From IMG/VR virus record IMGVR_UViG_3300011334_000360, positions 1 to 32,789 of that record: a DNA stretch of 32,789 nt; one strand, given 5' to 3'. The stretch is from a virus. Lineage: Duplodnaviria > Caudoviricetes. Under the pieces are notes generated by a model that worked only from the letters and a program-made list of their open reading frames with translations, had not been told where the DNA came from and made no database searches. Below are positions 689 to 21,846 of this stretch, in pieces. Position 1 is the first letter of the stretch. Each line of letters starts with the position of its first letter. The translations under genes and the position numbers were made by a program.

Positions 689-1063
689 ATGAAACACACG
701 CTGAATACCTACGACATTGCAAATGCACTCCTCGCTGACACTAACGCAGCTTGGTCGCACGCTGGAGCTTACGCGCTCGCCGAATACCTGGAGGATTATG
801 AGGAGTCAACTGGCGAGGAGCTAGAGCTGGACGTTGTGGCTATCCGCTGCGACTTCTCAGAATACGCCTCATTGCAAGATTGGGCGAGCGAATACTTCGG
901 CGACGAGTCACAAGCGGCTGATGCACTAGGTCTTGATATTGATATGGACGGCGTGACAGTCGCGAATGACGAGTCAGAGATCGAGGAGGCAATCCGCGAA
1001 TATATCCAAGACCACGGTACACTGATCGAATTTGATGGCGGCATTATAACCTCCAGCTTCTGA
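689..1063 (+). CDS. acidic early phage protein (possible DNA-mimic/anti-restriction type)
   Basis: ATG 689 (MKHTLNTY...); very D/E-rich (YLEDYEESTGEELELDVVAIRCDFSEY); first gene after the promoters; function inferred. Confidence 0.75.
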   Translation: MKHTLNTYDIANALLADTNAAWSHAGAYALAEYLEDYEESTGEELELDVVAIRCDFSEYASLQDWASEYFGDESQAADALGLDIDMDGVTVANDESEIEEAIREYIQDHGTLIEFDGGIITSSF

Positions 1064-1114
1064 GCCGCTGACGAGTCCCAGGCAAGGGACGAAATCCCCG
1101 CAAGGGGATACGGC
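1064..1114 (+). ncRNA. type I hammerhead ribozyme (HH1)
   Basis: GCCG-CUGACGA-GUCCC(AGGCAA)GGGAC-GAAA-UCCCC(GCAA)GGGGA-UA-CGGC; complete catalytic core, three perfect stems, AUA cleavage triplet (cut after 1110). Confidence 0.93.
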
Positions 1115-5616: not shown

Positions 5617-5763
5617 GTCTGCTATTGTTGAAAGTTGTCTCCATGACATGCGCAAGCTAGGCAATAAAGGACACATCTCATTTACCATGCGTAAAATGAG
5701 ATACGAACACGCTTAGGCGTTTTCAGCAGACCCCGTCAGCACCCACTGGCGGGGTTTTTGTTT
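5617..5763 (+). ncRNA. putative structured small RNA (sRNA-1) with three-way-junction motif
   Basis: GUCUGC/GCAGAC closing stem; core UAUUGU-UGAAAGU-UGUC(UCCAU)GACA-U-GC(GCAA)GC-UAG-GCAAUA; extra hairpin AUCUCAUUUAC/GUAAAAUGAGAU; no ORF; covaries with 7218-7262. Confidence 0.75.
5730..5763 (+). terminator. intrinsic terminator
   Basis: ACCCCGTCAG-CACCCA-CTGGCGGGGT followed by TTTTGTTT. Confidence 0.85.
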
Positions 5764-6729: not shown

Positions 6730-6994
6730 ATCGTTTGTTCTTTCCTTGTTTATTTCTGTACACAATTAGTCTCATAACCTCCCTAGAGCACACACGATGA
6801 GAAACAATATCTACCATGTGCTTTTATGATTCGGAAACCAGCCCCTTAGGAGTCAACCTCCTGCCACCTCTGCTTAGTCTCATGGTGACAACTCGTTAGC
6901 CCCTTTCGAGCGTTTCAAGCCTAGTGATGAGTGTGGAAGATTCACGTCTTCTCGCGGTGTCCTTTGTTTTGGTCTGTCTTCAGAATCGAACAGG

Positions 6995-7096
6995 GGAAAA
7001 TGAAAAGCCCGTTCGAGATACGACCTTCGAACGGGCTTCCAATGCTATTTGAACACACAGCAAGAAATCTTTGTTAGGCGGTCGTATCGCGCGAAC
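6995..7096 (-). ncRNA. leader A: terminator hairpin whose loop pairs with the transcript 5' end
   Basis: perfect 12-bp stem 7005-7016/7027-7038 plus U-tract on - strand; loop 7017-7025 is the exact reverse complement of 7080-7088; middle hairpin 7043-7062. Confidence 0.75.
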
Positions 7097-7102
7097 GAGA
7101 GA

Positions 7103-7130
7103 ATAATAGAACAAGATTGGGAAAACGCAA
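7103..7130 (-). promoter_or_regulatory. promoter for leader A and the leftward operon
   Basis: - strand TTGCGT, 16 nt, TATTAT. Confidence 0.65.
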
Positions 7131-7150
7131 GAAATAATTTTCAAGCGGTG

Positions 7151-7307
7151 AAAAAATATCTCCCAAAGTGTGCATCGTTGAGAGGCATGGGAGATCTGCT
7201 GTGATTGGAGACCCGCACCCGATCTAGCTTTCGCGATGACATGGAGTCAACTTTCAATCGGGGCAGGAATCCCACCTACTACGCGCAATGCTGCGTTTCG
7301 CAAGTTC
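7151..7307 (-). ncRNA. putative structured small RNA (sRNA-2), second copy of the three-way-junction motif
   Basis: core CCCGAU-UGAAAGU-UGAC(UCCAU)GUCA-UC-GC(GAAA)GC-UAG-AUCGGG; extended CCUGC/GCGGG stem; ends in AUCUCCCA/UGGGAGAU hairpin plus AUUUUUU. Confidence 0.75.
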
Positions 7308-12260: not shown

Positions 12261-12464
12261 ATGAATAAACAACCAAGCACAACGAAGAAGATAGAAGCAT
12301 GGCTTCTCAAAGGGCATAAGATCACGCCACTGCAAGCACTCCAGAAGTGGGGATGCATGAGACTGGCAGCGCGGATTGCGGAGCTCCGTAACAAGGGGAT
12401 TGCTATCAGCACCACTAAGGTCAAATCCAACGGTAAAACCTACGCACAATACAAGGCACTATGA
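12261..12464 (+). CDS. winged helix-turn-helix protein
   Basis: ITPLQAL..WGCMRLAARIAELRNKGIAIST...YAQY. Confidence 0.85.
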   Translation: MNKQPSTTKKIEAWLLKGHKITPLQALQKWGCMRLAARIAELRNKGIAISTTKVKSNGKTYAQYKAL

Positions 12465-12754
12465 AAAAAAGAGCCAAGAGAGCGAGCGATAAAGGCTTTA
12501 GCATGATTTGCGGCAGACCGAGATACAAGCCGTGGGAGCAGAAGGCTACGATTGTCTTGCGCTTGTCACAGGAGACGTATCAGCGTATCAGGCGGCTATC
12601 GTTGCACAGAAGATGCAGCGTAAGCCAAGCGGCAGAGTTACTCATGCGCACGGAGGAATCTGAGAAGATCGAGCCGACAATGCCGATTGACTACTCATTC
12701 CTAGAAAAGAAAGGCAACAGCTACACAGTATTAGACATTCTTAATTTACCATGA
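12461..12754 (+). CDS. putative RHH/CopG-like DNA-binding protein
   Basis: GRPRYKP...TIVLRLSQETYQRIRRLS....SVSQAAELL. Confidence 0.6.
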   Translation: MKKRAKRASDKGFSMICGRPRYKPWEQKATIVLRLSQETYQRIRRLSLHRRCSVSQAAELLMRTEESEKIEPTMPIDYSFLEKKGNSYTVLDILNLP

Positions 12755-13338
12755 ACACACTACGAGGATTTCCAAAACGCTACGAGGATGCCCCACCAGC
12801 AGGGGGGGATGAATGGTTGGCAAACTATGCCAAGTGCCTCTCTAAAACCGATTCTGGGGGCATTACGATCCTTTACGGGGGATATGGCACAGGCAAGACG
12901 CGCATGGCATGGGAGGCGGCTAGAGCGCATAAGTCGAAGAATCCAACAATGAGCAATGGTGGTATTGGGTGGACGATAAACACGAAGAAGCGTCCGATGC
13001 TTTACACTACGGCAATGAATCTGTTTACGTCGATCAAATCATGTTACTCACCTAATTCACAGAAGTCAGAAAAGGAAGTGATACAAGAGTATTGTGAAGC
13101 TGCCTTGCTGGTGATTGATGAAGTGCAGGTGCGAGCAGAGACGAAATTTGAGGATGACAAGCTAACCGCTATCATCGACGCACGATACGCTGCTGACATG
13201 CCGACCATCTTGATTTCCAATTACACATGGGAGAAGCTGGCATCCACGCTGTCACCTGCGGTGATTGATCGGATCGAGGAGAATGGGGCTAAACTACTAT
13301 TCAACTGGGAATCATTCAGGAGAAAGCAACAAGCCTAG
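12751..13338 (+). CDS. DnaC/IstB-like AAA+ ATPase (helicase-loader-like)
   Basis: Walker A GGYGTGKT, Walker B LLVIDE, IIDARY...PTILISN, DRI...FNWESFR. Confidence 0.9.
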   Translation: MNTLRGFPKRYEDAPPAGGDEWLANYAKCLSKTDSGGITILYGGYGTGKTRMAWEAARAHKSKNPTMSNGGIGWTINTKKRPMLYTTAMNLFTSIKSCYSPNSQKSEKEVIQEYCEAALLVIDEVQVRAETKFEDDKLTAIIDARYAADMPTILISNYTWEKLASTLSPAVIDRIEENGAKLLFNWESFRRKQQA

Positions 13339-20195: not shown

Positions 20196-20295
20196 AATTA
20201 AAACGCCATTTACGCTCGGCGGTGCGAGTCGAGAAAAATTAATCATAATTTCCAAACAATGTCAACAAGCAAGATAAATTTGTTAAAGATTTTTC

Positions 20296-20323
20296 TTGCG
20301 TTCTGAAAAGTGCTGTGTAAACT
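20296..20323 (+). promoter_or_regulatory. promoter for leader B and the inverted cassette
   Basis: TTGCGT, 16 nt, TAAACT; same TTCTTGCGTT -35 context as the leader A promoter. Confidence 0.6.
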
Positions 20324-20327
20324 CGCG

Positions 20328-20435
20328 GCGACGAGAGGTCGAATTCATCGTTGTAAATTTTGCTCCATTACTCATGGCTTGGAGTTAAGGGCTAGCACAG
20401 GTATTTCGACCTCCTTGTGCTAGTCCTTTTTCTTT
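20328..20435 (+). ncRNA. leader B: terminator hairpin whose loop pairs with a 5' hairpin loop
   Basis: AGGGCUAGCACA/UGUGCUAGUCCU plus UUUUUCUUU; loop UUCGACCUC (20405-20413) is the exact complement of GAGGUCGAA (20335-20343); middle hairpin 20362-20385. Confidence 0.75.
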
Positions 20436-20460
20436 GGGCTAGATTAACCAAGAAATAATT

Positions 20461-20670
20461 ATGAAACAATTCCACACAACACAATACCATTATGAAATGG
20501 AGACGCAACGCTTCGATTGTCCCGTAGAAAACGTAGGCGAATGGTTAAACGACAGAGCAATTAAACAAGCGTTTAGACAACAAGAAGTATTTTGGGAGGT
20601 TTGCGAAACAACTTTAATCAAACAAGAAGATGGCACGCATATCTACCAAGTCACAGTATCCGCAAATTAA
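20461..20670 (+). CDS. hypothetical protein (inverted cassette)
   Basis: 69-aa ORF with A-rich leader. Confidence 0.7.
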   Translation: MKQFHTTQYHYEMETQRFDCPVENVGEWLNDRAIKQAFRQQEVFWEVCETTLIKQEDGTHIYQVTVSAN

Positions 20671-20688
20671 CCGAACCAAGAAACAACC

Positions 20689-20904
20689 ATGAACGAAGAG
20701 CAATCAAAATACATTGTGCGAGTCCTTACATTTCAGTGCAATCCAAGCACCGCAACTGACGATATTCAGCAGGACCTATTTTTGATCCGCAACCGATACA
20801 GCGAGCTAAAACAAAGCAGAAGCTACGAAGACGCTTCAATTTTGGCAAAAGCTGAATGGTTGCAAAACTACATCAACCAAACCAAGAAACCAACGAACTA
20901 CTAA
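20689..20904 (+). CDS. hypothetical protein (inverted cassette)
   Basis: 71-aa ORF with AACCAAGAAAC leader. Confidence 0.7.
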   Translation: MNEEQSKYIVRVLTFQCNPSTATDDIQQDLFLIRNRYSELKQSRSYEDASILAKAEWLQNYINQTKKPTNY

Positions 20905-20937
20905 AACATTGACAATTAGCATTTAACCAACCGAACA

Positions 20938-21174
20938 ATGAAAACAGAATACTACTACAAAGAAAAAGGATGCGATGATTTCAATGGACCTTATCCGTCT
21001 ATTTCAGCAACAGAAAAAGCAATCTTAAAAGAACACAAAGAGATTTGGGAGACATCCTGTAACTGCCTTCAGTCAGCATCATCTAAATCTTGGTGCGATC
21101 CAGTTCAAATTTTCAAAGTGGTTAAAACCGTCAAACTTGAAGTTACCGCAAACATAAAATTACAAGAACAATGA
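20938..21174 (+). CDS. hypothetical protein (inverted cassette)
   Basis: 78-aa ORF with ATGA overlap. Confidence 0.7.
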   Translation: MKTEYYYKEKGCDDFNGPYPSISATEKAILKEHKEIWETSCNCLQSASSKSWCDPVQIFKVVKTVKLEVTANIKLQEQ

Positions 21175-21530
21175 ACACAGAATCAGACACACCGAGGACG
21201 GATGCGCTAATGCCAGACCAAGGACAGAAGCGAACCATGCTTGAGCACATCGAGGCCATGGAAGCGCACGCGCGTCAGTTGGAGCGAGAGCTAAACGACG
21301 TGACAACAGATCGCAACAATCTCGACGCGAGTTTGACGGCGGCGATAAGTTCATCCAATGCACGACATTTTGAGTCGATGGAACATGAAGCTAAAAGCAA
21401 GCAACTAGAGCGCGAGCTAAACGCCGCCATGCAAGCAATACGCGAGATTTACGCCAACGAATACAACTCATTGGAGACCTACACAATTTGCGAGAAAATC
21501 CTACCAAAAGAAGAACATTTGAAGCCATGA
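21171..21530 (+). CDS. coiled-coil phage protein (SDTPRTDA / ARQLERELN type)
   Basis: SDTPRTDA N-terminus and QLERELN twice. Confidence 0.8.
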   Translation: MNTESDTPRTDALMPDQGQKRTMLEHIEAMEAHARQLERELNDVTTDRNNLDASLTAAISSSNARHFESMEHEAKSKQLERELNAAMQAIREIYANEYNSLETYTICEKILPKEEHLKP

Positions 21531-21796
21531 AAACATACCGAAAAATCACGATCCTATTTGCTGACGAAGAACCAGCAGCGGCATACAGCGACGAAACCAT
21601 TGCGCAGACCGTGCTGGAGCGTTGCGAGGAATGGCAACAGAAAGACATGGAGATGTTCGCCTATTGCATGTGCGATGAGGTCACTCCCACCGAATATCGC
21701 GACAAATTACAGGCTTATGCAGACTCACATCCACTCGATCCAAGCTATGCAAGCGCTCAATACTACGCGCTGAAAACAGTTTTTTTGCACGAGTGA
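21527..21796 (+). CDS. hypothetical protein (inverted cassette)
   Basis: ATG 21527 (MKTYRKI...) in ATGA overlap. Confidence 0.7.
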   Translation: MKTYRKITILFADEEPAAAYSDETIAQTVLERCEEWQQKDMEMFAYCMCDEVTPTEYRDKLQAYADSHPLDPSYASAQYYALKTVFLHE

Positions 21797-21806
21797 TTCA
21801 CAGAGA

Positions 21807-21846
21807 CAAGAAACCCGTAGAGATTAAATTTCCCTACGGGTTCTTG
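21807..21846. terminator. hairpin between convergent genes, probably a bidirectional terminator
   Basis: AACCCGTAG...CTACGGGTT flanked by CAAGA/TCTTG. Confidence 0.7.

Follow-up and report, generated by a model that had tools for sequence, protein, structure and literature searches.

Leader B, at positions 20,296 to 20,435 of the window (the whole 32,789-nt stretch of DNA analysed here, which is the entire record of a 32.8-kb phage), is, as far as sequence comparison can tell, a real structured RNA element of about 105 nt whose loops are conserved in their pairing. The loops of its 5' hairpin and of a terminator-like hairpin are complementary, this complementarity has evolved by compensatory change, and behind most relatives' leaders there is a structured noncoding tail. 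The leader is an uncatalogued, strongly covarying predicted phage RNA switch. It would be a further form of the known kissing-loop antitermination, and the larger structured RNAs to which it is joined make up a family that is so far undescribed. We give an even chance to the reading that leader B is a ligand-free kissing-loop attenuator, fixing the share of transcripts that read through.

The phage record is 89% complete and carries genes for Erf, exonuclease VIII, RusA, MazG, a DnaC-like loader, terminase, capsid, and tail. Among named phages, C75C1 comes closest, with 54% capsid identity; no leader was found in it. No capsid relatives were found in GTDB genomes, and a pattern scan of GTDB gave 43 matches, none of them a leader. 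Leader B opens a plus-strand island between the minus-strand portal block and a putative scaffold gene. In 80 relatives fetched by their capsid protein, the distance between portal and scaffold genes varies from about 0.5 to 4 kb where both genes are present; relatives that have no island carry hairpins resembling the island-closing one right at this site. The small ORFs of the island, which are likely to be reached by read-through only, have no significant Pfam family and a single weak match, to a PHROG of unknown function.

Table 1. Coordinates of leader B, its island, and the leader A unit in the window (feature, position, strand, basis or remark)
Predicted promoter	20296..20323	+	-35 TTGCGT 20296-20301, 16-nt spacer, -10-like TAAACT 20318-20323
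5' hairpin P1 (GACGA/UCGUU)	20330..20352	+	RNAalifold pairs 10-13/30-33; 83.9% of cells paired
Helix K 5' strand, variable "address" GAGGUCGAA	20335..20343	+	6/9 pairs covary; own-versus-cross matrix
Middle hairpin P2 (GCTCCA/TGGAGT, arms 20362-20367/20380-20385)	20362..20385	+	folding
Intrinsic-terminator-like hairpin	20388..20435	+	14-bp stem, arms 20388-20401/20414-20427
Helix K 3' strand in terminator loop UUCGACCUC	20405..20413	+	complementarity, covariation
Predicted read-through-only helix P4 (20420-20426 with 20436-20442)	20420..20442	+	shuffle test, kept in tail-less copies
Small ORFs, predicted read-through only	20461..21773	+	ORF list; no promoter-like site between terminator and first ORF
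Island-closing hairpin, terminator-like on minus strand	21811..21843	.	between portal block and putative scaffold gene
Leader A, layout as leader B, address GAUACGACC/GGUCGUAUC	6995..7130	-	sequence, shuffles
Structured noncoding tail, type t5, behind leader A	6760..6994	-	window's only intact leader-plus-tail unit

The promoter, hairpins, terminator, and 9-nt complement of the original prediction are all present at the predicted positions. The -35 context TTCTTGCGTT (20293-20302) is common to leaders A and B, as had been claimed, and its sole other copy in the window is the one in leader A (7124-7133, minus strand). Scored against a training set of 55 distinct promoters at equal distance in relatives, the window included, the leader B promoter reaches 12.9, compared to a 10th percentile of 11.9 for the set. 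The 16-nt spacer holds for leader B and is not a constant of the family, since spacers of 16, 17, and 18 nt occur in 29, 21, and 5 of the 55 promoters. Promoter spacing in these 55 distinct relatives puts the predicted transcription start at G20330 +/-1. The inverted arms GCGACGA/TCGTTGT (20328-20334/20348-20354), read earlier as the 5' hairpin, do exist in the DNA; given that start, the transcribed stem is probably only the 5-bp GACGA/UCGUU. Its loop presents the element GAGGTCGAA (20335-20343). P2 exists in relatives but aligns poorly, varying in both sequence and length.

The terminator-like hairpin of leader B is GC-rich and ends in a T tract (20427-20435), the arrangement that defines an intrinsic terminator; a stock terminator scan missed it because the loop is longer than 8 nt. 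This loop, TATTTCGACCTC, has 12 nt (20402-20413), nine of which are the exact complement of 20335-20343. In relatives, 88% of the cells of the terminator stem are paired, with compensatory change in 9 of 14 pairs. The leader B region folds with z = -4.6, and none of 200 shuffles is equally stable. It had been feared that such 9-nt matches might be as frequent in shuffled sequence, and they are rare there: when the upstream 58 nt were dinucleotide-shuffled 20,000 times, a complement of at least 9 nt to the terminator loop came up 22 times for leader B and 3 times for leader A. Rfam gives no significant match to leader B. Assembled contigs from 8 of the 24 listed runs, at low depth, cross the promoter and flanks, with no ends called.

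Searches in related phages bore out the expectation of a conserved promoter-proximal RNA with loop-to-terminator-loop pairing, which is widespread in the phage group. A scan with the two 9-mers returned 52 loci, of which 18 are true leaders and 34, being unrelated chance or coding matches, were dropped; a scan with the 5' part only returned the same 18 contigs, with a matching loop in all. One scanner match, L125, was a false positive and was also dropped. At the capsid-gene loci of the 80 relatives, a leader is present in 39, B-type in 33 and A-type at the same site in 6; among the others, four stop short of the site and the rest have only an ORF promoter or nothing. Seven of 12 near-complete relatives have a leader, and five have no credible leader of either type. 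Leader-plus-tail units have no blastn match in INPHARED or PLSDB. No description of the motif was found in the literature; the phage-RNA survey PMC10690425, with 10,000 candidates and mostly unsearched supplements, may include it.

The letters of helix K change while the complementarity is kept. In an alignment of 24 B-type leaders, several rows of which are out of register, K has compensatory changes in 6 of its 9 pairs, no invariant column, and 26 cells with double-sided changes, compared to 8.6 in shuffles. Its covariation score of 0.364 compares with 0.08-0.22 when the helix is slid, and 0 of 500 shuffles reach it. The 81 distinct leaders, which are related sequences and so do not count as independent events, use 27 non-nested addresses, each matching its own loop: a 5' segment pairs with its own loop over 8-9 nt and with the loops of other leaders over a mean of 4.1. 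The pairing also appears in a test blind to the loops, which scanned for motifs inside the downstream tails and gave 84 loci, partly on the same contigs and many of them close kin. Of the 77 that could be scored, 74 have at least 8 perfect pairs, two have 7, and one has 5, a shortfall owed to a single mismatch; two further loci are truncated, and in the five that the script passed over the pairing is visible on inspection. A chance origin of the loop match is ruled out by the folding, shuffles, covariation, and tail-anchored scans.

Leaders A and B share a layout. Covariance models of the two types do not find each other, and the types have no shared invariant core; B-type leaders have a conserved 5' GAC plus its partner, and in A-type terminator loops only about 1 nt remains to span the 9 bp. 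Even so, the two types appear to belong to a single class of cassettes and to be interchangeable, because A-types are found at the B site and in L065 the tail behind a B-type leader is of A type. The same two observations, with A-type leaders at the B locus in six relatives, make the supposed "independent" origin of B doubtful. Two other proposals concerning the pair did not survive the comparison. A common GGUCG/CGACC core is not general, as only 4 of the 27 pairing variants contain GGUCG or CGACC. The cis helices have 9 bp (-13.7 and -13.4 kcal/mol), whereas A with B in trans would pair over 6 bp (-8.6 kcal/mol), and over just 4 bp (-3.7) with the A and B leaders of G005 and G026. L291, L305, L306, L319, and L320 carry leaders of a third type, which are shorter (in L306, about 86 nt) and have 7-8-nt addresses ahead of t4-like tails.

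In most relatives, the U tract leads directly into about 250-300 nt of conserved noncoding sequence, of five types, seen only where a leader precedes it. Such tails fold on the leader's strand, with compensatory pairs in 8/72, 18/89, 10/72, and 5/106 cases in four alignments. A further alignment has compensatory change in 18 of 38 pairs and includes a misplaced row, L301, the source of the single broken cell in most pairs. Types t2 and t4 are homologous through L289/L321 (E about 1e-16), the t3-t4 link being marginal (E 0.007); a common origin of all tails was set aside, as t1 and t5 are unlinked. ROOL, GOLLD, HEARO, and ARRPOF are large structured noncoding RNAs of bacteria and phages, and the tails resemble them as multi-helix, covarying, gene-free phage RNAs of a few hundred nucleotides. 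They differ in lying behind an internal terminator, in having no Rfam match among the tails scanned, and in the lack of tRNA and tmRNA genes (none found by ARAGORN in 10 loci). The t4 tails (L278-L322), together with L289 and L321, form a structured RNA family of about 300 nt with a near-invariant internal-loop hairpin close to the 5' end.

No promoter-like site was found between terminator and tail, and a search for countertranscripts revealed no conserved antisense promoter-like site across the leader, opposite-strand scores exceeding the threshold in only two listed leaders, at different places; the tail therefore needs read-through. Among the 53 tail-anchored loci with a convergent late gene in view, 32 have no sense ORF of at least 40 aa behind the unit, which makes the RNA itself the apparent product at those loci, and no downstream gene is common to the loci. 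The proposal that the leaders gate accessory operons thus fits the window's own lineage and not these 32 loci; as a rule, it is a structured noncoding tail that follows the leader. In t1/t2 loci, a site of the type TTCTTGA-16-GAAACT recurs right before the first ATG; it mostly scores below threshold, and as evidence for another promoter ahead of the ORFs it is only suggestive. In the window and 16 near-identical copies, leader and P4 are present and the tail is absent, with an ATG about 30-40 nt further on. The loss of the tail from the window's B copy is probably a deletion, and "leader of an accessory operon" is a locally apt description in this tail-less lineage.

Genomes whose B leader is tail-less have an intact A-type unit, which is found at another site in the window, G005, and G026, and near-complete relatives have at most one leader-plus-tail unit each. 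Such counts would also be expected if leader and tail together were a replication-primer or origin cassette, by analogy with ColE1 RNA II, with the attenuator setting the supply of primer; the AT-rich DNA downstream of t4 tails and the failure to recognise an initiator protein beside the DnaC-like gene fit as well. We nevertheless consider this highly improbable, since 5 of 12 near-complete relatives have no detectable unit, the four of these that were examined have the same DnaC module, and the units show neither a shared G tract nor a plasmid match in PLSDB. Replication genes do not separate genomes with the unit from those without it.

For the attenuator reading of leader B, we propose the following sequence of events. 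When polymerase stands at the U tract, about 14 nt of RNA are still inside the enzyme. The 9-bp helix K would form as the terminator loop exits polymerase, before the 3' arm is free, and would hinder closure of the terminator. Should the terminator win, an RNA of about 105 nt would be released; should K hold, polymerase would continue and the freed 3' arm would pair downstream, forming P4. Read-through would then yield a structured noncoding RNA of about 350-420 nt or, in the tail-less lineage of the window, the switch would dose the small ORFs. No signal that modulates the switch was identified.

Folding of the RNA exposed at the U-tract pause, in a nested-fold model, has K dominant and the terminator top unformed in 75 of 75 leaders, and folding of the released RNA has the terminator dominant in 71 of 75; the program forbids pseudoknots, so that the exclusion between K and terminator is partly built into these figures. 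Once the address is scrambled, only 38 of 75 leaders form the terminator top. In this model K can form first, and mutual exclusion with the terminator lies beyond its reach. The linkers that bridge K are short, measuring about 1 nt in A-type loops, and this suggests that K puts strain on the stem. The downstream partner of P4 lies past the U tract, so P4 could exist only in read-through RNA. It beats shuffles at p<=0.05 in 24 of 37 distinct leaders and is retained in 16 of 16 tail-less copies, one with a mismatch; by comparison with relatives, P4 in leader B appears as the last remnant of their tail. Extension of K by strand invasion into the terminator 3' arm is possible but was rejected, as it reached p<=0.1 in 2 of 37 leaders, no better than shuffles.

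The same structures could be read the other way round, with the terminated RNA of about 105 nt as the product, a compact stable small RNA such as a decoy, K locking its ends and read-through being leakage. The strong 14-bp stem would suit such a molecule, further RNA cassettes made of promoter plus terminator occur in the islands, as do abiF-family RNAs, and the window's lineage retains the leader without the tail. This reading seems to us distinctly unlikely, as it leaves the promoter-less structured tails and P4 unexplained and the bridge of about 1 nt over 9 bp in A-type loops is likely incompatible with a fully closed stem.

The closest known parallel to the proposed attenuator is the guanidine-IV riboswitch (GGAM-1/mepA motif) with its variant Gd4v, in which a kissing contact between a 5' hairpin and a Rho-independent terminator's loop competes with terminator completion, giving read-through (PMC7736828, PMC11611296, PMC9788692). 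Judged by sequence, the phage leaders likewise pair a 5' hairpin loop with a terminator loop. The guanidine-IV kissing loop needs a ligand to win, whereas the phage leader is proposed to be ligand-free; the phage leaders also have an extra middle hairpin, and their context is a noncoding tail or unrelated small ORFs rather than a sugE/mepA-type gene. In place of a conserved core, they have 27 address variants and a hypervariable K. Related pseudoknots are used by the ZTP (pfl) and fluoride riboswitches (PMC10687018, PMC12667848), in which a long-range pseudoknot from the 5' subdomain resists terminator nucleation (PMC10687018) and terminator formation breaks the pseudoknot by strand exchange; these are ligand-bound aptamers with conserved cores, of which the phage leaders show none.

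The shared topology with guanidine-IV raises the question of whether the leader is itself an orphan riboswitch or a protein-dependent switch, in which a metabolite, ion, or phage protein would stabilise K, and the conserved 5' GAC with its partner in B-type leaders would fit this as well. We judge this very unlikely. The nucleotides of K are precisely the variable ones, whereas those around the guanidine-IV pseudoknot are highly conserved, no invariant core is common to A and B types, and a common downstream gene is lacking.

A different role for the variable addresses would be feedback in trans, with terminated RNAs or terminator fragments binding the 5' loop of new transcripts and blocking K; read-through would then be shut off as time passes or when kin co-infect, with specificity coming from the variable address. 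The 27 addresses are mutually near-orthogonal, and in all three genomes with two leaders (the window, G005, and G026) the two addresses differ. There are precedents in PMC4825925, which describes short and long isoforms of Gifsy-1 IsrK acting on each other and pairing of the P4 CI RNA with seqA and seqC. These too are promoter-proximal phage RNAs with an internal terminator and short and long isoforms, in which complementary segments control termination (same source); for the phage leaders, such control is what we propose. The leader differs from them in that its complement lies in the terminator loop itself and in that no kil/antirepressor-type genes were recognised downstream. In contrast to P4 CI and P1 c4, neither leader nor tails match Rfam C4. 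The complement exists upstream only, and across the whole window each 9-mer has a single partner, its own. This last finding weighs against feedback in trans, as do the lack of any recognised integrase or repressor in the window and the ability of the intact short RNA to pair its own loops, which would make processing necessary; neutral compensatory drift, moreover, would yield many addresses too. We hold feedback of this kind to be unlikely. Equally doubtful is the broader notion of an address-coded attenuator class, in which a swappable 9-nt lock and key would set the yield of the 350-420-nt RNA (approximate length) and short RNAs would feed back on templates of the same address; if true, it would amount to an RNA-only timer or kin-recognition circuit.

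For the attenuator reading itself, the interest lies in the variety of the natural leaders. Kissing-loop antitermination has been tested in one riboswitch class, where it is ligand-driven, and these phages supply dozens of variants conserved in pairing only, a set suited to studying how pairing of a terminator loop controls release from RNA polymerase. The 27 near-orthogonal natural addresses could become tunable parts. The comparison also reveals uncatalogued structured phage RNAs of about 300 nt, whose production would depend on the leader switch.

Several other elements lie near the leaders. No replication initiator was recognisable in the window or the relatives scanned; in the DnaC-like loader region (12261-13338), a winged-helix protein and a small protein precede the loader, as they also do in relatives G002-G014. 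The intergenic gap 1050-1112 (plus strand) holds a hammerhead-like core with two perfect short stems, matched by Rfam Hammerhead_3 only at E=0.3. An abiF RNA (RF03085) scores above the gathering score at 7158-7194 (minus strand), directly upstream of the leader A promoter; of eight loci scanned in relatives, two also have abiF RNAs near their leaders (L265, 1045-1081 and 1172-1208; L289, 938-974). No AbiF protein was recognised in the window, and the RNA near leader A is possibly an antitoxin-like decoy. A 22-nt inverted repeat (91%) at 5628-5649 and 7236-7257 marks two related noncoding cassettes flanking the leader A island. In L073, L101, L102, and L077, more promoter-plus-terminator noncoding cassettes, of two kinds, are stacked upstream of the leader.
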